Origin: an uncultured Clostridia bacterium
GTDB lineage: Bacteria > Bacillota > Clostridia > Saccharofermentanales > Fastidiosipilaceae
DNA length: 45,170 nt
Assembly (NCBI GenBank): GCA_947253135.1
Contig: CAMXYS010000001.1
Span: 1 to 45,170 of the forward strand
Reading direction: 5' to 3'
Below, piece by piece: positions 4,582 through 13,955 of this stretch (within the stretch, counting starts at the first letter, position 1; every line of letters starts with the position of its first letter). The notes beneath the pieces were generated by a model that worked only from the letters and a program-made list of their open reading frames with translations, made no database searches and was not told where the DNA came from. A program made the translations under genes and the position numbers.

Positions 4582-4621
4582 AAAAAACCGTCGGTGGAGT
4601 GATCTGCCGGCGGCTTTTTTG
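4582..4621. terminator. Bidirectional rho-independent terminator between the tkt operon and the convergent island genes
   Basis: AAAAAA-CCGTCGG-(15-nt loop)-CCGGCGG-CTTTTTT. A 7-bp stem with one G-U pair, A-run before and T-run after. Confidence 0.7.
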
Positions 4622-4640: not shown

Positions 4641-4952
4641 TTAAGAATATAAAACGCTGATTGAATCAAAGATCTCGCCCATGCTTTTTCCATCAATAAC
4701 TTTGGCGGCTAAAAAGTTATCAATATTTTCATTTGCATCTTTATTGCTTGCTTCATAAAGCAACTCACACTTTACGGCCGGCTGACCATCAGCTTGATAG
4801 GCTCCCCAATCATAAAGTGACAAAGAATGCGTATTCATGGGCTCTTGTATCCATCCGGAATTTAAGGATAAAAAATTCCCCTGATACAAGATCTCCATGT
4901 CGACACCGTAGTAGAGTTTGTCGTAAAACTCCTTAAAAGAAATATTTGCCAT
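4641..4952 (-). CDS. Small hypothetical protein (103 aa), third gene of cassette 1; immunity/antitoxin-like by position
   Basis: AGGGGG SD upstream, and its start lies 2 nt after the upstream stop. Shares EFYDKLYYGVD...GW and GKS...E..I with the 91-aa protein at 6133..6408. I recognise no known domain. Confidence 0.6.
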   Translation of the reverse strand: MANISFKEFYDKLYYGVDMEILYQGNFLSLNSGWIQEPMNTHSLSLYDWGAYQADGQPAVKCELLYEASNKDANENIDNFLAAKVIDGKSMGEIFDSISVLYS

Positions 4953-4954
4953 CT

Positions 4955-5326
4955 TTAGAGCCCCCTAAAATACTTTTTGTACTTTTTGAATTCTTCTTCG
5001 GTCAGAAGTCTTCCTGAACGGTCACGACTTAAATTTGAATAAAAATGGATATGAAGGACAGGTCCGTGATGCCCTGCCAATTTAGGTTCTTTGTGGTAGT
5101 CAATATCAAACTTTGCTGTTTTATCAGCATTATATTCACGATAACGCTTAAATTTCCCCTCGTGATCCAGCAAAATATAAGCTCTGCTGGAATGCGCTTC
5201 TTCCGGTAGATTGATGGAGTCCTTTTTATTTAACTTTTCTAGAACTTTTACACCCTCGATTATATCAACTGTTTCGTAGGTAAAGGGAGCATAATTATCA
5301 GCGGCATAGGTTCCCCGTCCACCCAT
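4955..5326 (-). CDS. Small hypothetical protein (123 aa) with conserved N-terminus MGGRGTYAADNY, EEAHSSRAYI and an LHxH motif; toxin-like by context
   Basis: Its start overlaps the DUF4417-like stop (TAATG at 5324..5328). It is a paralogue of 6401..6781, with 29 of the first 31 residues identical and a divergent middle. YKKYFRG is conserved at the C-terminus. Confidence 0.6.
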   Translation of the reverse strand: MGGRGTYAADNYAPFTYETVDIIEGVKVLEKLNKKDSINLPEEAHSSRAYILLDHEGKFKRYREYNADKTAKFDIDYHKEPKLAGHHGPVLHIHFYSNLSRDRSGRLLTEEEFKKYKKYFRGL

Positions 5327-5952
5327 TATCTCACCACCTTTCGGCTGGACATATAATCCACTGTAACTAAGTTACCCTCCATTTCTTTGAAGGGCTTGCC
5401 AAAACAAATAATGGCAGCTGGATTGATTTTTTCTAACATGACTTGATAGCCACGTAAAAAGGGAAGTCGATTGGCTTTTTTTGCACCAATCATGCCCACT
5501 GCTACGATGGAGCCTTCCTCTACGCCATCAAAACAAAAATCAAAGCTTCGAGTGTCACCCCAACTAATAGAGGGGATGACTGTAGCACCTTGTGCTTGCC
5601 ACCAAGCCCCACACCAGCGATTTTTGGCAACATTTTCTAGCTGTCGCCACAAATCCATATCTGCATAAAGAGAAAAGTCAGGACTTAGAAGAAAGGTGTA
5701 TTGAGCATAGCGTGCCCAAGTTCTATTTGGATTATCATAGATCCCCTTAAAACGGTAGTCGTCAACAAAAAAGTGAACGCCTTTTTTTGTATGGATAGGA
5801 AGGTCATTCTTTTTTGTATCTGAACAAGCGATTAACTCGATCGGCTGCAATTCGATGGCTTGTTTATGAATGAGTGGCAGCTCATATTTGCCACTTTTAG
5901 TAAATTGATTTCTCATAAAAAGCGGATTTCTCCGCATGTCTGCACTTGTCAT
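5326..5952 (-). CDS. DUF4417-like protein (208 aa)
   Basis: HFFVDDYRF, LLSPDFSLYADMDLW, NRWCGAWWQAQGATVIPSISWGD..SFDFCFDG match my memory of the DUF4417 family consensus (DDY and PDFS motifs). AGGAGG SD at 5959..5964, 6 nt before ATG 5952. Confidence 0.65.
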   Translation of the reverse strand: MTSADMRRNPLFMRNQFTKSGKYELPLIHKQAIELQPIELIACSDTKKNDLPIHTKKGVHFFVDDYRFKGIYDNPNRTWARYAQYTFLLSPDFSLYADMDLWRQLENVAKNRWCGAWWQAQGATVIPSISWGDTRSFDFCFDGVEEGSIVAVGMIGAKKANRLPFLRGYQVMLEKINPAAIICFGKPFKEMEGNLVTVDYMSSRKVVR

Positions 5953-6089
5953 ATAGCGCCTCCTAAAAGCTTAAAGTTTTTTGTCGGATGTGCTACCATG
6001 ACCTTGCAGACGTGCGATAGCACATATGTGATAGCCTCTAATTTGTTGCCGCAAATTTGAGGCTTTAATTTTTTACTAAAAATATTGAA
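5943..6089. repeat. Direct repeat copy A (147 bp, identical to 6867..7013): 5' end of the DUF4417 gene plus leader/promoter-proximal region
   Basis: Base-by-base comparison shows 147/147 identity at an offset of 924 bp. Similarity continues with mismatches to about 5923 and 6098. Confidence 0.95.
6016..6063 (-). promoter_or_regulatory. Operator-like palindrome CACATATGTG (6021..6030, flanked by GATAGC direct repeats) and a hairpin with 12-nt arms (6034..6045 / 6052..6063, 11 of 12 paired) in the cassette leader; duplicated at 6940..6987
   Basis: Read directly from the sequence. It sits between the putative -10 (6079..6084) and the SD (5959..5964) on the minus strand. Confidence 0.4.
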
Positions 6090-6107
6090 CCGCCTATTTT
6101 AAGTCAA
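6079..6107 (-). promoter_or_regulatory. Putative sigma70-type promoter of cassette 1 (-35 TTGACT, 17-nt spacer, -10 TATTTT)
   Basis: On the minus strand TTGACT is 6107..6102 and TATTTT is 6084..6079. The -35 lies just outside the 147-bp repeat, so cassette 2 shares only the -10. Confidence 0.35.
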
Positions 6108-6132
6108 ATCAGAATTCATTGAGAATCCGACC

Positions 6133-6408
6133 TCAAGAATCGACCCATTCAATTTGGCCTTCTACCTGATAAAAGGATTTACCGGCAAAAAATTGCCCTT
6201 GTATAAAGGCGTCTACGCATTCAAGTCTATCTAAACTTGAATAATGCCAAACCGGAATGGATAAATTGCTTATATTAGTGAGCTCAATCGTGTATAGATC
6301 ATTCTTACACCAACCTTGAAGCAGATATTTATCGCCATTAAAGTAAAACCATAGATCTGTTCCGTAGTATAAGCTGTCAATAAAGTCGCCCGTATTTCCA
6401 TTAATCAT
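6133..6408 (-). CDS. Small hypothetical protein (91 aa), third gene of cassette 2; divergent paralogue of 4641..4952
   Basis: GAGGAGGG SD upstream, and an 8-nt overlap with the upstream gene. Shared DFIDSLYYGTD...GW motif. Confidence 0.55.
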   Translation of the reverse strand: MINGNTGDFIDSLYYGTDLWFYFNGDKYLLQGWCKNDLYTIELTNISNLSIPVWHYSSLDRLECVDAFIQGQFFAGKSFYQVEGQIEWVDS

Positions 6409-6781
6409 GGCACCCTCCTCTAAAATATTTTTGATATCTTTGATATAATCTCGATTTTTTCTTTATGGCAATAGCCGGTGATCGATTAAAAAACTCATCG
6501 TAAATGTGGTAATGAAGTATATTTTTTCGGCTTAAATCTAAGTTTGGTTCGGGGTGGTAAGCAATTTCAAGTCTTAAATATTTATTTGAATCATAAATTC
6601 TAATCTGGTGAAAGCTGCCATCCCGCTTTAATTTAATGTAGGCTCTGCTAGAATGTGCTTCTTCCGGTAGAGAATGCTTCCCGTCCAGGCCTTCCAGCAC
6701 TTTTACACCCTCGATTATATCAACTGTTTCATAGGTAAAGGGGACATAGTTGTCAGCAGCATAAGTTCCTCGTCCGCCCAT
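6401..6781 (-). CDS. Small hypothetical protein (126 aa), paralogue of 4955..5326 (MGGRGTYAADNY..., EEAHSSRAYI, LHYH, YQKYFRG)
   Basis: The same N-terminal 31 aa (29 identical) and the same TAATG coupling to the upstream reading frame. Confidence 0.6.
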   Translation of the reverse strand: MGGRGTYAADNYVPFTYETVDIIEGVKVLEGLDGKHSLPEEAHSSRAYIKLKRDGSFHQIRIYDSNKYLRLEIAYHPEPNLDLSRKNILHYHIYDEFFNRSPAIAIKKKSRLYQRYQKYFRGGCHD

Positions 6782-6876
6782 TATCTCACCACCTTTCGGC
6801 TGGCCATATATCGACCGGTAGTAAAGCAGTTTTTCTTTTTGGGGAACGGATTTCTCCGCAAGTTTTCACTTGTCAT
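6781..6876 (-). pseudogene. DUF4417 remnant: 31-codon in-frame deletion derivative (MTSENLRRNPFPKKKNCFTTGRYMASRKVVR*)
   Basis: Hand translation of the reverse complement. It keeps the N-terminus (MTS..RRNP) and C-terminus (YM.SRKVVR*) of the 208-aa protein. The homology offsets on either side (924 vs 1455) differ by 531 nt, which is 177 codons. The SD and the TAATG coupling are retained. Confidence 0.8.
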
Positions 6877-7013
6877 ATAGCGCCTCCTAAAAGCTTAAAG
6901 TTTTTTGTCGGATGTGCTACCATGACCTTGCAGACGTGCGATAGCACATATGTGATAGCCTCTAATTTGTTGCCGCAAATTTGAGGCTTTAATTTTTTAC
7001 TAAAAATATTGAA
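6867..7013. repeat. Direct repeat copy B (147 bp, identical to 5943..6089)
   Basis: See copy A. Confidence 0.95.
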
Positions 7014-7253: not shown

Positions 7254-8060
7254 TTGGCTGACCGGATGACAGAAACAATCATCAAGAGTAAGCGACGCGT
7301 GCAAAAGCATGGCGAAGTTTTTACGCCTAAATGGATGGTAAACCGTATGCTTAATGAGCCCGGTATTAAGGAGGCCTGCCAAGACCCGGGAGCCCGCTTT
7401 TTGGAACCGGCAGCCGGCGAAGGGGCCTTTCTGAGGCAAATTTTGAAGCGTAAGCTCAAAGCGGTGACGGACCGGATCCAGGTCGGTCAGATAGACCAAG
7501 CCCCGCCTTCTTTTGAACAAATAGAAGGGCACCTGCTGCTAGCACTTTCGTCGCTTTATGGAATTGAATTGTTAGAAGACAATGCCCGCCAATGTGCCAT
7601 CAATCTTTTTTATAGCTTTACCAGAGCCTACGAAGCATATGCCAAGGCACAAGGTAGAAAAACGAGACCCGGCGTGCTTAAAAGTGCCCAATTTATCATC
7701 TCTAAAAATATAATGGAAGGTGATTTTTTAAAGAGGTCAAAGACAGATGGTCAAGCCATTATCTTTAGTGAATGGGAACCTTTACCGTCAGACCCAAAGC
7801 GCCGTCACCTTTATGTACAAAGGACGGAGTACAGCCTACAAGAGATTTATGACGGGCTTAAGTTGTCTCCCGGCCGCATCTACTGTGGCGAAACACCGGA
7901 GTCACCTAAGCAAATTTCCATCTTCGATTTATTAGCTCCATCAGCAGGGACTGAACAGGAGGTAATACCCGCGGAGCCGCTTGTAAGATACCAAGTTTGC
8001 CGAATTGACCGCGTCTATTTAGAGAAAGTTGAGGAAGTCCATGGACAAGACCTTAATTAG
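7254..8060 (+). CDS. Methyltransferase-fold protein (268 aa) with motif X and SAM motif I but no (D/N)PP(Y/F/W) catalytic motif
   Basis: GEVFTPKWMVNRML (motif X-like), FLEPAAGEGAFL (motif I), LYGIELLEDNARQCAINL (motif II-like), NIMEGDFL (motif III-like). Where FDxxxGNPPY is expected the sequence reads AIIFSEWEPL. TTG start at 7254, 7 nt after GGGGGG (an alternative ATG is at 7266). The 3' end overlaps the next gene by 20 nt. Confidence 0.7.
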   Translation: MADRMTETIIKSKRRVQKHGEVFTPKWMVNRMLNEPGIKEACQDPGARFLEPAAGEGAFLRQILKRKLKAVTDRIQVGQIDQAPPSFEQIEGHLLLALSSLYGIELLEDNARQCAINLFYSFTRAYEAYAKAQGRKTRPGVLKSAQFIISKNIMEGDFLKRSKTDGQAIIFSEWEPLPSDPKRRHLYVQRTEYSLQEIYDGLKLSPGRIYCGETPESPKQISIFDLLAPSAGTEQEVIPAEPLVRYQVCRIDRVYLEKVEEVHGQDLN

Positions 8061-11000
8061 GCCCTTCGAGCAAAGAGATTTAAAAATTTATGGCTACACC
8101 CTGCCGGAAGTGCCTAGCCATGACGGTTACATCAAGATTGGGGAGACCGGCCGTGATGTTAGGCAAAGAATTTTGGAACAGGTAGGGACTGCCGGTTTGA
8201 CGCCTGACATCCGCTTTCAAAGACGGGCACAAAAGGCCAATGGGGAATGGTTTCATGACAAGGATTTGCACCGCTACCTGATCGCCAGAGGCAAGCGCCG
8301 GGCAAATTTTGGCACGAGGGCGGACGAGTGGTTCTATTTTAACGGTGAGATCGACCAGGCTGAAGTTTATACGGATGACTTTATCGCTACAGGTGCAGCC
8401 ACACAGCAGCAAATCAGCCAAGATGAACGACTGGATTATACCCTGCGCCAAGAGCAGGCGATTGCGGTAGAGCAAACTTTTGCCTATTGGCAAACTCATA
8501 CGGCTGACCGGGAATTCTTGTGGAATGCTAAGCCCCGCTTTGGCAAAACATTAACGACTTATGATTTTATGCTTAAGATCGGGGCAAGAACGACCTTGAT
8601 CGTGACCAACCGGCCGGCTATTGCCAATTCCTGGTATGACGACTTCAGAAAATTTATCGGCTGGAAACAAGAAAAACGTCAATATTATTTTGTTTCCGGC
8701 ATGGAGGAGCTAATCCGAGCTGGGGCCCTCACTTATGAACAGTATATAGAAGTTATTCCCCAGATTGGCGAGGCTGATATCGGGTTGGTGGTTTTCCTTT
8801 CTTTACAGGATTTGAAGGGGGCTAAATTTGCCGGCGGCCCTTATGAAAAATTGGGCTGGGTGGCTGATTTTAAATGGGATCTCCTAGTGATTGACGAGGC
8901 CCATGAAGGGGTGGACACAGCCAAGACGGACCAAGCTTTCGACCGTATTGTAAGGGACTTTACTCTCCACTTGTCCGGCACGCCCTTCAAGGCCTTAGCG
9001 AATGAAAAATTTCAGGCGGACCAGATTTATAATTGGTCCTACTTGGACGAACAAAAGGCCAAGCAAGACTGGGATCCGACCCTTGATACCAACCCCTATG
9101 CACCCTTGCCTGCTTTAAGTCTTTTTACCTACCAGATGGGCAATTTGATTACAGACCGGATGCAGTCGGCCGCCCATACAGAAGAGGGGAATATCGATTT
9201 TACCTTTGACTTAAATGAATTTTTCAGGACAGATGAGCAGGGAAGCTTTGCCCATGAGGAGGCGGTCAAGTGTTTTTTAGACCGACTGACGAGTGGCCGG
9301 ATGCCTTTTTCGCCGACTGAATATTTACATGAATTAAACCATACTTTTTGGCTTTTGCCCCGGGTTGCAGCCTGCAAGGCAATGGAAAAGCTTTTACATA
9401 GGCACCCCGTCTTTAAGGACTATCAGACTGTCTTGGCAGCCGGAGATGGTGAAAGTTTGGCAGGGCCCTTGATAGAAGGTGAGGTCCTGCCCAGTGAGGT
9501 TGAGCAGGCCAAGCGAACCAGCAGCAGCTATGCCAAGGTAAAAGAAGCCATTAAAAACTGTGAAAAGACCATCACCTTGTCAGTTTCTCAGTTGACAACC
9601 GGGGTCACAGTGCCGGAGTGGACAGCAGTTTTGATGCTCAGCAATATTCAGTCACCGGCCCTTTATTTCCAGGCGGCCTTCCGCGCCCAAAATCCCTATG
9701 AATATGAGAAAAATGGGAAGCTTTTCCGGAAGGAAAATGCCTATGTTTTTGACTTCGCACCGGAGCGGACGCTGCTATTGTTTGATGAATTTGCCAACAA
9801 TTTGACTCCGGTTTCTAGGCTTAATAATGGCAGTCGGCAGGACAATATTCGGGAGCTTTTAAACTTCTTCCCGGTGATCGCAGCAGATGAGGCCGGTTAC
9901 ATGGAGGAGTTGGATGCTGCGGCAGTGCTGACTATCCCTCGGCGTTTAAAGGCCCAAGAGGTGGTACGGCAGGGCTTTATGTCCAACCTCTTGTTCCAAA
10001 ATATTGCCGGTATTTTTGCGGCACCTGCTTTTATAAAGGAAATTTTAGACAAGGTTAAGCCGGAAGAAAACAAGAAGCAGGCTAAGGAAAAAAGACCTAC
10101 GCGGATTGCAGACCTGGAGTTAGACCGGCAGGGGCAGGTGGTGGTCGATCAAGGCATTGTCATCAATAAGAAGAAAGACTTTTTTGGTGATAAGCTATAT
10201 GAGGCAGTTGAGCTTTCGGCCACAGCTACAGAGCGAAAAATTGTGAGCCAATTGATGGAACAGACCAGGCTCGGCTTAGAGAAGATGGGCCAGGCGGAGG
10301 GTTGGAAAGGCCGGGAATTACAACAACGGGAGAAGTGGTTTAGGGACAAGGCTGCGGCGGTGGTGGCGGAGGCTGTGGACTCCTATCAGGCAGACTTGAC
10401 AGCGGTTCATGAGGACTACCGGCAGGCTCTGGCTGACGTCCACGAGACAAGGACGGAAGAGGAAATCCGAGCGGCCAGAAATGAAGGGGAGGAGCGTGCT
10501 CGGCTAATACGGGATGAGGTTATTTTGGCCAGGGTGGAAGCTCTGCCTGAGGAATTGATTAAACGCGAAGAAGTCCGCAAGGAAGAAAAGAAGAAAAGGG
10601 ACAGTGAGGCGGATGTCAGAGACCACCTGCGTGGCTTTACCCGGTCTATACCGGCCTTTTTGATGGCCTATGGAAGTCCAGAAACCCGGTTAGCGACTTT
10701 CGAGCAAGGAATTGATCCGGCTACTTTTGAAGAAACGACCGGTATCAGCCTGGAAGAGTTTGAGCTTTTGCGAGATGGCTGCAATTTTGAAGATGAAGAA
10801 GGTAACCTCCAAGTCTTCAAGGGCTTTTTTGATGAATTAATCTTTGACCGCAGCATAGAGGAGTTTTTTCGTAAAAAGGAAGAACTGGCCGACTATTTTG
10901 ATGAGAATTTGATGGAGGATATCTTTGACTATATTCCGGAGCAAAAGACAAATCAGATTTATACACCTCGGGCAGTTGTTCGCCTGATGGCAGATGCTTT

Positions 11001-12369
11001 GGAAGAAGAAAATCCCGGTATCTTTTCAGATCCAAACCGAACCTTTGTCGACCTTTATACAAAGAGTGGACTTTATTTAACAGAGCTGGTAAAGCGGTTA
11101 AATGAGGGGCTGAAGAAAAAAATCCCGAACCGGTTTGACCGGATCCGTCATATTTTAGAAAAGCAGGTCTATGGATTGGCACCCAGCAATATTATCTACA
11201 ATATTGCAAGAAATTATGTCTATGGGATCCATGACAGTGTGGATATCAGTAACTTAGTCGAGTGGGACATGGCTCGGTCGGCCAAGGAAGAAAGTATGAT
11301 AGAAGACTTGCCCCAGGCCTTTGGAGGAAAAGAGATGAAGTTTGATGTGGTGATTGGCAATCCACCCTACCAGGAGGAGATGAAAGGAACGAGTGATCGC
11401 CCAATATATCCGGAGTTTATGGAGGGAGCTTATAGCTTAGCAGATAAGGTCATCCTTATAACGCCGGGACGATTCTTATTTAATGCTGGTAAAACAAGTA
11501 AGCAATGGAATCAAAAAATGCTCCACGATGAGCATTTAAAAGTGATTTTTTATGAACAAAAAAGTGGCAAAGTCTTTCCTAATACAGATATCAAGGGCGG
11601 GGTGACAGTTACCTATCGAGATGCAAACCAAAAATTTGGGGCAATTGAGGTTTTTTCAGCGCATCAAGAGTTGAACAATATTTTACACAAGGTACTTGAG
11701 TTAGGTGAGGAAAGTTTTAGCAGTTTAGTTTATTCACCTGAAAGTTATAAACTTACTAATCAACTCCATAAGGATTTTCCGGAAGTTGAGGGAAGACTTA
11801 GCAAAGGTCATAAGTATGATGTTACAACCAATATCTTCGAGAAATTGCCGGAGTTTTTTTTAGATGAGGTAGAAGATGAGAACGGTTATGTACGGATTTA
11901 CGGCCGTGAAAACAATTTAAGGCTTAGCAAATATATAAAGGAAGAATATATTAGCGGCCCAGAAAATTTTAAACACTACAAGATTTTTGTTCCTAAGTCT
12001 AATGGGTCAGGGGCAATTGGTGAAAGACTTAGTACGCCGCTTCTCGGCCCGCCGCTTCTCGGCCCGCCGCTTCTCGGCCATACCCAGACCTTCTTGAGCA
12101 TTGGCAATTTTGAAAATGAGAATGAAGCTGTGGCGTGTTTGAAGTACGTAAAAACGTGTTTTTGCCGCGTTATGTTGGGAGTCCTGAAGGTAACCCAAGA
12201 CAATAAAAAATCAACTTGGAAGTATGTCCCCTTGCAAGATTTTACTTCTAACTCTGATATCGACTGGTCTAAATCCGTTGCTGAGATCGACCGGCAACTG
12301 TACGCTAAATATAAGCTATCAGCTGATGAGATAGACTTTATCGAGACCAACGTCCAGCCAATGGAATAA
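8041..12369 (+). CDS. Multidomain protein (1442 aa from ATG 8041): GIY-YIG/T5orf172-like module, SF2 (ResIII/DEAH) ATPase, charged coiled-coil linker, Eco57I-like N6-adenine DNA methyltransferase and a C-terminal specificity-like region
   Basis: Residues are numbered from the ORF-track start 8029. KIYGY...GYIKIGETGRDVRQRILEQ...EWFYF at about aa 18-105. Helicase motif I PRFGKT (GKT codons from 8542), motif II DEAH (from 8893), SGTPF, and QAAFRAQNP (motif VI-like). A KE-rich segment at about aa 680-870. IYTPRAVVRLM (motif X), FVDLYTKSGLYL (motif I-like), GNPPYQ (NPPY = 11359..11370). GAGGA SD at 8031..8035 favours ATG 8041 over the track's TTG 8029. Confidence 0.85.
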   Translation: MDKTLIRPFEQRDLKIYGYTLPEVPSHDGYIKIGETGRDVRQRILEQVGTAGLTPDIRFQRRAQKANGEWFHDKDLHRYLIARGKRRANFGTRADEWFYFNGEIDQAEVYTDDFIATGAATQQQISQDERLDYTLRQEQAIAVEQTFAYWQTHTADREFLWNAKPRFGKTLTTYDFMLKIGARTTLIVTNRPAIANSWYDDFRKFIGWKQEKRQYYFVSGMEELIRAGALTYEQYIEVIPQIGEADIGLVVFLSLQDLKGAKFAGGPYEKLGWVADFKWDLLVIDEAHEGVDTAKTDQAFDRIVRDFTLHLSGTPFKALANEKFQADQIYNWSYLDEQKAKQDWDPTLDTNPYAPLPALSLFTYQMGNLITDRMQSAAHTEEGNIDFTFDLNEFFRTDEQGSFAHEEAVKCFLDRLTSGRMPFSPTEYLHELNHTFWLLPRVAACKAMEKLLHRHPVFKDYQTVLAAGDGESLAGPLIEGEVLPSEVEQAKRTSSSYAKVKEAIKNCEKTITLSVSQLTTGVTVPEWTAVLMLSNIQSPALYFQAAFRAQNPYEYEKNGKLFRKENAYVFDFAPERTLLLFDEFANNLTPVSRLNNGSRQDNIRELLNFFPVIAADEAGYMEELDAAAVLTIPRRLKAQEVVRQGFMSNLLFQNIAGIFAAPAFIKEILDKVKPEENKKQAKEKRPTRIADLELDRQGQVVVDQGIVINKKKDFFGDKLYEAVELSATATERKIVSQLMEQTRLGLEKMGQAEGWKGRELQQREKWFRDKAAAVVAEAVDSYQADLTAVHEDYRQALADVHETRTEEEIRAARNEGEERARLIRDEVILARVEALPEELIKREEVRKEEKKKRDSEADVRDHLRGFTRSIPAFLMAYGSPETRLATFEQGIDPATFEETTGISLEEFELLRDGCNFEDEEGNLQVFKGFFDELIFDRSIEEFFRKKEELADYFDENLMEDIFDYIPEQKTNQIYTPRAVVRLMADALEEENPGIFSDPNRTFVDLYTKSGLYLTELVKRLNEGLKKKIPNRFDRIRHILEKQVYGLAPSNIIYNIARNYVYGIHDSVDISNLVEWDMARSAKEESMIEDLPQAFGGKEMKFDVVIGNPPYQEEMKGTSDRPIYPEFMEGAYSLADKVILITPGRFLFNAGKTSKQWNQKMLHDEHLKVIFYEQKSGKVFPNTDIKGGVTVTYRDANQKFGAIEVFSAHQELNNILHKVLELGEESFSSLVYSPESYKLTNQLHKDFPEVEGRLSKGHKYDVTTNIFEKLPEFFLDEVEDENGYVRIYGRENNLRLSKYIKEEYISGPENFKHYKIFVPKSNGSGAIGERLSTPLLGPPLLGPPLLGHTQTFLSIGNFENENEAVACLKYVKTCFCRVMLGVLKVTQDNKKSTWKYVPLQDFTSNSDIDWSKSVAEIDRQLYAKYKLSADEIDFIETNVQPME
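12035..12079 (+). repeat. Perfect 3 x 15-bp in-frame tandem repeat (CGCCGCTTCTCGGCC) encoding (P)LLGPPLLGPPLLG inside the C-terminal region of the fusion protein
   Basis: Counted base by base: the units are 12035..12049, 12050..12064 and 12065..12079, all identical. Confidence 0.95.
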
Positions 12370-12497: not shown

Positions 12498-13955
12498 ATG
12501 GAGACAAAGGACCTGATTGATAGTTTCGATCCCTATGAACTTGCTAGCCGCAAAGAAGGGCAAACCTTTGAGCGGAAGAGCGCTCGGAAAAAACCAAAGG
12601 ATATTGCGCCTACTATTATCGCCTTTGCCAATACTGACGGTGGTGTTCTGGCCATTGGTATTGAAGATGACAGCACTTTGTCGGGCACCTCTTTTCAAGG
12701 TGCTTATACTTTAGATGACTATAAGGCCGCCATTAATAGTAATATTAAGGACCTACCGAATCTAGGATTCCATACGATCCCTTTTAAAGGAAAAGGATTG
12801 GAAGATAAAACTGATTATATTTATGTTATTACGGTCGAACTGTCGCGAAAACGAGTGGTGGCAGATGTGAGTGGGAAGGTATTTCTTCGCATTGGGGATA
12901 AAAGTCTGGTTCAGTCGCCGGCCCAAGTACAGCGTCTACAGTATGCTAAAGGTGAGCGCTTATATGAAGATAAAATAATAGACGAAGCATCTATTAAAGA
13001 TCTCGACACAGAATTACTTAATCGATACAAAAAACATAACAAGGCGGAGCAGTTGAGTGATGAACAAGTTCTTTCAGCTCGCGGGTTCATTCGTGACGGA
13101 CACTTGACTGCTTCAGCAATATTGATGTTCGGGAATAATCCTTTCATTTATCTGCCCCAATGCCGGCTACGCTTCCTGCGTTACGAAGGCGGAACTAAAG
13201 AAACCGGTGCTCGGATGAACTTGGTAAAAGATATAAATATTGAAGGAGCTTTGCCGCATATGATACGTGAGGCAGAGCAGGTCATTAAAAGCCAGTTGAG
13301 AGAATTCCAATTTTTGGGAGAAGATGGCCGTTTTAAAATTGTTCCGGAATATCCTGAGTTCGCCTGGCTCGAAGGAGTGGTTAATGCTCTTGTTCATCGC
13401 GATTATTCAATAACGGGTGACTACATAAGAGTCAGCATGTACGATGACCGGTTGGAAATCTTCAGTCCGGGAGCTTTGCCGGATATTGTAACGATAAAAA
13501 ATATGCGTTATACCCGTTTTGCTAGAAATCCTAGAATTGCCCGAGCTTTATCAGAATTTGGCTGGGTGAGGGAACTCAATGAAGGTGTTAACCGCATTTA
13601 TGATGAAATGAATCAATTTTTCCTTAAAGACCCTATTTATAGTGAGCCTAACCGCCATTCGGTACAGTTGAAATTAGAGAACAACTATGTATTGCGCCAC
13701 CAGAGAATCAATGAGAAAATCGATGAATTGCAAGGGCAGTTGTCATCGGACGCATTTAGCCCTAATGAGCGAAAGATTTTAGCTTATCTCTATAGCAATG
13801 AAAGTATCAATGTGCAAAAGGCATCAGAATTAATTGCGATGAGTGCTCCCAGTGCCCGCAAAATATTACGAGAACTTCTCAAAAAAGAGGCCGTGCAGTG
13901 GTTTGGTAATTCCGCCCGCGATCCCAAGCAATTCTATACTTGGCCGAGCCGGTAG
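12498..13955 (+). CDS. AlbA_2 (Schlafen-like) + HATPase_c_4 (RecG-C-terminal-like) + C-terminal wHTH-like protein, 485 aa
   Basis: The N-terminus ESFDPYELASRKEGQTFERKSA...IIAFANTDGGVLAIGIEDD is typical of AlbA_2 domains. EGVVNALVHRDYSITGDYIRVSMYDDRLEIFSPGALP is typical of the family usually annotated 'ATP-dependent DNA helicase RecG-like / putative transcriptional regulator'. AAGGAGAG SD before ATG 12498. Confidence 0.8.
   Translation: METKDLIDSFDPYELASRKEGQTFERKSARKKPKDIAPTIIAFANTDGGVLAIGIEDDSTLSGTSFQGAYTLDDYKAAINSNIKDLPNLGFHTIPFKGKGLEDKTDYIYVITVELSRKRVVADVSGKVFLRIGDKSLVQSPAQVQRLQYAKGERLYEDKIIDEASIKDLDTELLNRYKKHNKAEQLSDEQVLSARGFIRDGHLTASAILMFGNNPFIYLPQCRLRFLRYEGGTKETGARMNLVKDINIEGALPHMIREAEQVIKSQLREFQFLGEDGRFKIVPEYPEFAWLEGVVNALVHRDYSITGDYIRVSMYDDRLEIFSPGALPDIVTIKNMRYTRFARNPRIARALSEFGWVRELNEGVNRIYDEMNQFFLKDPIYSEPNRHSVQLKLENNYVLRHQRINEKIDELQGQLSSDAFSPNERKILAYLYSNESINVQKASELIAMSAPSARKILRELLKKEAVQWFGNSARDPKQFYTWPSR

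Follow-up and report, generated by a model that had tools for sequence, protein, structure and literature searches.

A 45,170-nucleotide stretch of DNA from an uncultured Clostridia bacterium (contig CAMXYS010000001.1; hereafter the window) carries at positions 4641-7013 a cluster of small genes that we designate D, M, and T, where D encodes a protein of the DUF4417 family, M a basic protein with an HxH motif, and T a small acidic protein. Sequence analysis of this locus and its comparison with related loci revealed a conserved gene order, translational coupling of the genes, an asymmetric pattern of gene retention, co-variation of M with T, a characteristic charge pattern of these two proteins, and mosaic recombination. 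Judged by these features, the locus seems to work like a toxin–antidote system with arrays in the style of polymorphic toxins, and we consider it rather probable that it encodes an array of intracellular toxins (M) and antidotes (T) with a shared DUF4417 partner (D), and not a secreted polymorphic toxin. As a bacterial conflict or defence system not seen before, the module is a good candidate.

The cluster lies entirely on the minus strand and consists of one full cassette, D–M1–T1, and an upstream pair, M2–T2, in front of which D persists as a relic; its upper limit is position 7013. D (5326-5952) is an intact DUF4417 protein of 208 aa that matched the Pfam family PF14386 over profile positions 3-179 of 183 with 169 bits (cut-off 28.9; E 9.6e-50), in agreement with an earlier note on this DNA that had assigned the leading gene to DUF4417, and that also matched PHROG 940 and 8680. 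The proposed toxin M1 (4955-5326) is a basic protein of 123 aa with an isoelectric point (pI) of 9.0, while T1 (4641-4952), an acidic protein of 103 aa with a pI of 4.2, would be its cognate antidote, that is, an immunity protein or antitoxin. The second toxin candidate, M2 (6401-6781; 126 aa; pI 9.1), is of a type other than that of M1 and is followed by T2 (6133-6408; 91 aa; pI 4.1), its putative cognate antidote. Both T proteins were recognised by a hidden Markov model (HMM) of the T family, with E-values of 4.7e-23 for T1 and 3.7e-27 for T2. All five minus-strand open reading frames (ORFs) appeared in the ORF listing where the earlier note had placed them, and the junctions that it described were also recovered: a TAATG overlap of 1 nt couples D to M1, a gap of 2 nt separates M1 from T1, and M2 and T2 overlap by 8 nt.

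Pairing and co-variation of M and T across related loci

The M family comprises more than 440 proteins of about 125 aa from gut and rumen Clostridia, none of which bears a name denoting a function beyond 'hypothetical' or 'uncharacterised'. Searches with M led to 95 loci whose ORFs were called and classified by HMMs built from the neighbours, and nearly all of these loci read D (about 207 aa) – M (about 125 aa) – T (about 92-100 aa). Exactly D–M–T was the composition of 37 of the 81 non-redundant loci, and in the rest D was truncated or additional M–T pairs or T genes were present, the longest array (M T M T T M T T M T T T T) reaching 4 M and 9 T genes. The same arrangement was observed in 56 metagenome loci of a distant M subfamily, which starts with MSSRG and is about 30-35% identical to the main family; in all, the D–M–T order was conserved across about 150 related loci. 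A scan of species-representative genomes confirmed 238 loci, and searches that started from D homologues returned the same D–M–T module, while a plasmid search for the module gave no matches. Since no close homologue of T1 was detectable among 5.8 billion proteins in a word-indexed search, the T family was collected from gene neighbourhoods. Comparison of 53 T proteins with Pfam indicated no Imm family and no other domain, and there was no match among PDB sequences.

The retention of these genes was one-sided. In the 81 non-redundant loci, each full-length M gene with enough room downstream was followed by a T gene (90 of 90), while 21 full-length T genes stood alone and 5 more followed truncated M genes. 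M was thus never found without T, and T was found without M, which is the pattern expected if the loss of T is lethal as long as M is present. The upstream regulators described below and D, the latter as relics of 31-165 aa, decay while M–T remains intact.

The relationship between the three proteins was then quantified by comparing pairwise identities over 56 unique D–M–T triples (median identities of 61% for D, 53% for M, and 31% for T), using Spearman's rank correlation (rho). The identity of T followed that of whole M with a rho of 0.53 and that of M residues 31 to the end with the same value, and its correlation with M residues 1-30 was 0.13. For D, the corresponding values were 0.13 with whole M, 0.22 with M residues 1-30, 0.08 with M residues 31 to the end, and 0.04 with T. 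T co-varies with the M body, and D is uncoupled from both M and T. Within M, the first 30 residues are constant (73% identity) and the body is variable (46%). The two partners also carry opposite charge, with a median pI of 9.2 for M and 4.4 for T. The earlier note had described a 5' module that is conserved and downstream pairs that diverge together, as in polymorphic toxin–immunity or toxin–antitoxin loci with orphan modules, and this description is borne out by the invariable pairing, the lone T genes, and the co-variation.

A natural fusion protein of 223 aa (P0149) consists of a full M joined to a full T. Three further proteins (P0197, P0173, and P0271) are chimeras, composed of either a T N-terminus and an M C-terminus or an unrelated N-terminus and an M C-terminus. 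Taken at the level of their sequences, the fusion and chimeric proteins suggest that these loci recombine often, or that frameshifts have occurred.

The two cassettes of the window

Pairwise alignment of both upstream regions revealed 147 consecutive nucleotides (5943-6089 and 6867-7013, minus strand) that are 100% identical. The identical 147-bp leader of the earlier note is therefore real, and it is made up of 137 nt of leader and the first 10 nt of the D reading frame, the latter belonging to intact D in the first copy, which includes the Shine-Dalgarno sequence AGGAGG, and to the relic in the second. The block is nested in a 178-nt repeat of 97% identity, and a second repeat (119 nt, 90% identity) spans the junction of D with M, with 30 nt in D and 89 nt in M. 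The same note had spoken of a tandem three-gene cassette, which holds for D–M1–T1 but not for the upstream unit, where sequence, pairwise alignment, and the repeats indicated that D is reduced to a 31-codon in-frame ORF (6781-6876, minus strand). The translation of this relic, MTSENLRRNPFPKKKNCFTTGRYMASRKVVR, ends at a stop codon and retains about 10 N-terminal and about 11 C-terminal codons of D, together with its start codon, the Shine-Dalgarno sequence of M2, and a TAATG overlap with M2; about 530 nt of the interior of the gene have been deleted.

At the protein level, the N-termini of M1 and M2 agree at 29 of 31 residues and the proteins share the motifs EEAHSSRAYI, LHxHxY, and YxKYFRG, as had been noted before, with 54% identity overall. 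T1 and T2 share LYYGxD and GW, also as described, and are 24% identical (E 6e-6). Recent duplication with divergence in place does not account for the two pairs, since each pair is closer to relatives in other genomes than to its neighbour: the closest relatives are 67% identical for M1, 66% for M2 (locus L087), 36-40% for T1, and 44% for T2 (loci L083 and L032). By this measure, M1/T1 and M2/T2 represent different types. Unusual likeness is confined to their 5' parts: over their first 90 nt, M1 and M2 have 87.8% identity, compared with a median of 67.8% and a 99th percentile of 82.2% in 4172 between-locus pairs. Two M–T types were thus brought together, and recombination homogenised the segment from the leader over the ends of D to M codon 30.

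As the source contig is of metagenome type, we also considered that the tandem arrangement might be an assembly artefact, with the leader common to both serving as the bridge between versions of a single locus from two alleles or two strains. A 6-kb contig of another sample (L097) would fit this explanation in that it carries D–M1–T1 and stops in the leader repeat. This contig is an independent assembly of D–M1–T1 beside the transketolase gene, and its end lies 131 nt upstream of D within the repeated leader; since an assembler is expected to break in such a repeat, it neither confirms nor refutes the tandem arrangement. We regard the artefact as very unlikely, because the proteins of both cassettes are on record on the same 45,473-nt contig (three contigs in all), multi-pair arrays are present in many independent assemblies, and the relic-D junction is a clean in-frame deletion with unique flanks of its own and not a chimeric join.

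Protein models, leaders, and genomic setting

The AlphaFold 2 (AF2) model of M1 (predicted local distance difference test score [pLDDT] of 82.7) has six β-strands, two short helices, and a C-terminal helix, with residues 1-11 disordered. In 47 diverse M members, P41, Y50, H92, and H94 (the two histidines forming the HxH motif) were invariant, and residues M1, G5, L40, and R63 were nearly so; the N-terminal tail, MGGRGT[FY]A, is both invariant and disordered. Neither M nor T belongs to a Pfam family, and scans of Pfam, NCBIfam, PHROGs, and PADLOC gave nothing significant for them. Profile searches with M, D, and T against PDB sequences likewise returned nothing, and the 47 M relatives had no relevant match in PADLOC. 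Two weak matches, to DUF6978 and to PDC-M24A (E 0.033), were dropped after they were not reproduced in relatives. Among predicted viral structures, Foldseek matched the M model to a 148-aa protein, a 406-aa 'minor capsid protein', and a 367-aa phage protein (E 2e-4 to 1.5e-3); a tblastn search with distant M members, aimed at the MuF-type phage proteins seen by Foldseek, gave nothing new.

A lead to a known toxin family came from three M relatives that weakly matched Ntox24 (PF15529), with E-values of 0.077, 4.4e-4, and 0.12, the last with 13.1 bits and hence below the gathering score of 24 bits. In this last relative (P0194), residues 54-118 aligned with profile positions 18-85 of 91. M1 and M2 themselves gave no match to the Pfam model of Ntox24 with its gathering score of 24 bits.

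A search of 1.84 billion representative proteins yielded about 410 M clusters, and the 150 that were listed are stand-alone proteins of 52-228 aa, in most of which the M domain starts at residue 1. None of these 150 contains a recognisable trafficking or delivery domain, and hydropathy analysis of D, M, and T indicated no signal peptide and no membrane or other hydrophobic segment. For the cluster of the window, the earlier note had likewise stated that no secretion or delivery domain is present.

The AF2 model of D (pLDDT 86) is composed of alternating β/α elements. Foldseek found no PDB match to it at E ≤ 0.001, and among the best hits (E 0.1-1) were several TIM-barrel enzymes, including, at this non-significant level, dehydroquinase, tRNA-guanine transglycosylase, and endonuclease IV. 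Phage DUF4417 proteins are known as fusions with ParB-type domains or from the vicinity of terminase genes. The earlier note had placed DUF4417 mainly in phages and mobile elements; the present module sits in chromosomal islands. The D–M–T module is not described in the consulted papers that mention DUF4417.

The leader of the window had no DNA-level match in other genomes, corresponded to no Rfam family, and its predicted fold was only modestly better than that of shuffled sequences (z -1.96). The leaders of many loci contain a long inverted repeat of variable sequence with a TTGC…GCAA core, and, in addition, a short palindrome with a third inverted copy. The palindrome with its third copy was present in 24 of 64 leaders, compared with 8.4±2.4 in shuffles. 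Counterparts of both dyads are found in the window leader (dyad A at 6033-6064 and dyad B at 5988-6025) and are repeated 924 nt upstream in the second copy (6957-6988 and 6912-6949). Across the window and loci L015-L095, the sequence of the dyads varies between loci and their symmetry is kept. On this basis, they may be operators for a helix-turn-helix (HTH) protein or hairpins of the 5' untranslated region.

In related loci, a possible ligand of such operators is encoded close by. In 36 of the 73 loci with enough upstream sequence, genes for an HTH_31 protein (about 120 aa) and for a second protein (about 175 aa) that has an HExxH motif and a weak Peptidase_M78 match lie directly upstream on the same strand, separated from D by a gap of about 200 nt. 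From these comparisons, the full module elsewhere would comprise five genes, in which D, M, and T are preceded by those for an HTH repressor resembling ImmR and an HExxH peptidase resembling ImmA. The window holds a reduced copy that has lost both regulators. A related case was observed at one chromosomal site represented in different samples (L098 compared with L099 and L100), where one variant lacks the HTH gene and has a shortened peptidase gene, while D–M–T is unchanged; it is an example of regulator decay.

At the other end of the operon, a bidirectional intrinsic-terminator hairpin (4588-4613, both strands) lies between the transketolase gene and T1; it was detected by a scan of the plus strand and, read on the minus strand, its stem is followed by TTTTTT. 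It is likely the 3' end of the operon.

In general, the modules form stand-alone islands among unrelated housekeeping genes, and some are located inside regions that resemble conjugative elements. In the window, the cluster is part of an island of about 10 kb (4.6-14.4 kb) between the transketolase gene and an α/β-hydrolase gene, flanked by genes of glycolysis and amino-acid metabolism; the island also holds a methylase-like ORF, a 1446-aa protein with a helicase and an Eco57I-type methylase, and a protein resembling Schlafen/AlbA_2 ATPases. The first of these (7254-8060, plus strand; 268 aa) resembles only the N-terminal part of type II/IIG methylases and overlaps the start of the second (8029-12369, plus strand), which has ResIII helicase and Eco57I-type methylase domains, and the two may be a split or frameshifted restriction-modification-like gene. 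The third (12498-13955, plus strand; 485 aa) combines Schlafen AlbA_2, HATPase_c_4, and winged-HTH domains and gave a partial PADLOC match to pAgo (E 2e-40), with no Argonaute gene nearby. At another locus (L006, 2224-5732), which lies on a 1.6-Mb contig, HTH–peptidase–D–M–T is directly preceded by a SUKH immunity gene and the gene of a 404-aa protein that has an LHH (HNH/EndoVII) toxin domain, an arrangement that suggests a mixed toxin island.

A phage origin of the module was considered and rejected. The main M family occurred on 1 of 2.9 million viral contigs and the distant M subfamily on none, and the sole 'phage' match in GenBank is a bacterial chromosome. This entry, MT835546.1 (L096, 7862-26185), is labelled 'UNVERIFIED: Bacteriophage sp.', yet around the five-gene module it carries genes for phosphoglucomutase, DNA polymerase III δ', PSP1, an FtsA-like protein, and GH26; given these housekeeping genes, it appears to be bacterial chromosome mislabelled as phage. 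In none of the inspected contexts were genes for a type VII secretion system (T7SS), a type VI secretion system (T6SS), an ABC exporter, or phage-head and other structural proteins found beside the module.

Proposed function and its alternatives

The resemblance of M to Ntox24 deserves a closer look. Ntox24 is an all-β domain with a conserved tyrosine and two histidines, is predicted to be a metal-independent RNase, and was found in T7SS and MuF toxins as well as, as a free toxin, in novel type II toxin–antitoxin (TA) systems with an uncharacterised antitoxin (Zhang et al. 2012, PMC3482391). M is comparable in that it is small and essentially all-β, has a conserved Tyr and two His, and has a small, presumably protective protein encoded next to it. 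It differs in that T matches neither Imm50 nor Imm53, the immunity families known for Ntox24, and in having a DUF4417 partner and upstream HTH and peptidase genes, neither of which is reported for Ntox24 in the same study (Zhang et al. 2012, PMC3482391). We treat the likeness, which is sub-threshold, as a lead and not as family membership, and the shared all-β architecture and Y/H/H residues as resemblance and not as homology.

Another instructive comparison is with the E-type nuclease colicins and their immunity (Im) proteins, in which one catalytic fold occurs in many specificity types, each with a small, acidic, co-evolving immunity protein encoded directly downstream. M likewise has one fold in many types, each with a small, acidic, co-varying T directly downstream. 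Colicins, however, are set free by the cell and have domains for receptor binding and translocation, whereas M is a bare protein of 125 aa without export features, encoded in chromosomal islands and not on colicin plasmids. With polymorphic toxins, i.e. those of contact-dependent inhibition (CDI), Rhs, LXG, and MuF systems, the module shares an immunity-type gene directly downstream, extra modules and orphan arrays, and recombination in a conserved segment upstream of the variable part. Unlike in those systems, there is no swapping of unrelated toxin domains, as all M proteins have one fold and the Y/HxH residues and only the type varies, and each M has its own start codon and Shine-Dalgarno sequence, so that the arrays consist of complete genes and not of silent C-terminal fragments. 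Since no trafficking domain was found, M also lacks the defining property of polymorphic toxins. With neither trafficking domains nor domain swapping nor secretion genes nearby, the suggestion of a polymorphic toxin does not hold in its classical sense.

Type II TA systems are similar in having adjacent small genes, which here overlap or lie 2 nt apart, in that M never occurs without T, and in the one-sided decay; the module differs from them in its third conserved gene, D. Regulation seems to be delegated to the separate HTH/peptidase pair. In this regard the related loci resemble ImmR/ImmA of ICEBs1 and CapH/CapP of the cyclic-oligonucleotide-based anti-phage signalling system (CBASS), in which a small HTH repressor is cleaved by an HExxH metallopeptidase after DNA damage (bioRxiv 10.1101/2022.04.27.489752; PMC13228613), as they too have an HTH gene and an HExxH peptidase gene upstream of the operon. 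Unlike CapH/CapP, which is divergent from its operon, the pair lies on the strand of the operon, and the peptidase, at about 175 aa, has the size of ImmA and lacks the extra domain of CapP, its Pfam M78 match being weak.

Tripartite TA systems, for example those consisting of a toxin, an antitoxin, and a chaperone, also have a third conserved gene translationally linked to the toxin–antidote pair. D is such a third gene, translationally linked to M–T, but it is an alternating β/α DUF4417 protein that is encoded first, evolutionarily uncoupled, and often lost.

These comparisons led us to propose the following mechanism. M would be an intracellular toxin, most likely attacking RNA without a metal ion through its HxH/Tyr site, as proposed for Ntox24. 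T would be an acidic, fast-evolving antidote that binds one-to-one to the variable M body (from about residue 31 to the end). Comparison across loci strongly supports these proposed roles of M and T, and the co-variation, the complementary charges, and the natural M–T fusion speak indirectly for neutralisation by binding. More tentatively, D could be a conserved, shared partner acting on the M tail, MGGRGT[FY]A, as a platform, an activator, or a modifier; that D engages this invariant tail is weakly supported. If D recognises an invariant tail, one D could serve several M–T pairs, and the upstream D could therefore decay. Recombination in the segment comprising the leader, the end of D, and the M N-terminus would stack M–T pairs of different specificity, and in the window it would have placed relic-D–M2–T2 ahead of D–M1–T1, both units having an identical leader in front and sharing one terminator at the end. 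In full modules, the HTH protein would repress the operon through the leader dyads and the peptidase would cleave it on DNA damage or infection, by analogy with ImmR/ImmA and CapH/CapP. The purpose of the system would likely be abortive-infection defence, addiction of the island, or both.

Several observations speak against this proposal. Foldseek found no PDB match to the M model at E ≤ 0.001 (best E 0.07), the Ntox24 likeness stays below the Pfam threshold, and 19 of 20 other M members scanned singly had no Ntox24 match. The PADLOC v2 models match none of D, M1, T1, and T2, and M2 gave a single weak match (PDC-M24A, E 0.033). The window copy has no HTH or peptidase gene upstream. In type II TA systems, the antitoxin is usually encoded first and binds DNA, whereas the T gene comes last and no DNA-binding domain is recognisable in its product. 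The contact between D and the tail is argued weakly, from the conservation pattern, the disordered tail, and the correlation of 0.22. Finally, arrays of orphan antidotes are less characteristic of TA loci than they are of immunity between bacteria.

The last point leads to a different explanation, according to which M is a polymorphic toxin, secreted or delivered by contact, that kills competitors, T and the orphan T proteins confer protection against the cell's own and foreign M variants, and D is an export or maturation factor acting on the M tail. Such a function would account for arrays with several M types and many orphan T genes and for M–T co-variation; it would also fit the weak likeness of M to Ntox24, known from T7SS and MuF toxins, its structural likeness to phage minor-capsid proteins, the LHH toxin and SUKH immunity genes directly upstream of the module in L006, and the invariant MGGRG tail, which could serve as an export or processing signal. 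We nevertheless find it improbable, because M is a stand-alone protein with no trafficking domain among the 150 clusters listed of about 410, the hydropathy of D, M, and T points to neither a signal peptide nor a membrane segment, the inspected contexts of the module contain no adjoining genes for a T7SS, a T6SS, an ABC exporter, or a phage head, and a single fold with a single set of motifs is common to all M proteins. Orphan T genes, moreover, are also expected from the one-sided decay of an intracellular toxin–antidote pair.

It could also be argued that the locus is no conflict system at all, and that D is an enzyme, perhaps acting on nucleic acid, with M and T as its structural or regulatory subunits, whose variability reflects relaxed constraint or a variable substrate. 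D is indeed the best conserved of the three proteins (median identity 61%), phage DUF4417 proteins are fused to ParB-type domains and encoded beside terminase genes, and the non-significant matches of the D model include nucleic-acid TIM-barrel enzymes (tRNA-guanine transglycosylase and endonuclease IV). On the other side, it is D that decays, to relics of 31-165 aa, with M–T remaining intact, and M–T pairs multiply without it. The occurrence of T without M, but never of M without T, also stands against this explanation, the charge complementarity and M–T co-variation are hard to account for by it, and the patchy, island-like distribution beside defence genes speaks against a housekeeping role. 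We therefore judge it unlikely, and return to the intracellular toxin–antidote array as the basis for what follows.

In its most far-reaching form, this proposal would make D–M–T, together with the ImmR/ImmA-like switch, an undescribed damage-inducible immune system of gut Clostridia, in which a DUF4417 enzyme docks on the tail of new HxH RNase-like toxins and hypervariable antidotes, stacked in arrays by recombination, set the specificity. We regard this full version as possible but doubtful. If true, it would mean that diversification in the style of polymorphic toxins takes place wholly inside the cell, and it would provide the first function for DUF4417.

Array-style diversification of toxins and antidotes is normally linked to secreted toxins, and here it is found in a module without export features. 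Pfam contains no family for M or T, no relative of M has a solved structure, and DUF4417 has no assigned function, though it is common in phages as a ParB-type fusion; the context of the module ties DUF4417 to the genomic signature of toxin–antidote systems and thereby offers a testable functional setting. At least 238 species-representative genomes, mostly of gut and rumen Clostridia, carry the module, and two of the genome records are not labelled as metagenome-assembled genomes, namely Anaeromassilibacillus senegalensis strain An867 and an Olsenella uli isolate. The D–M–T module may rank among the commoner uncharacterised conflict systems in gut and rumen microbiomes.

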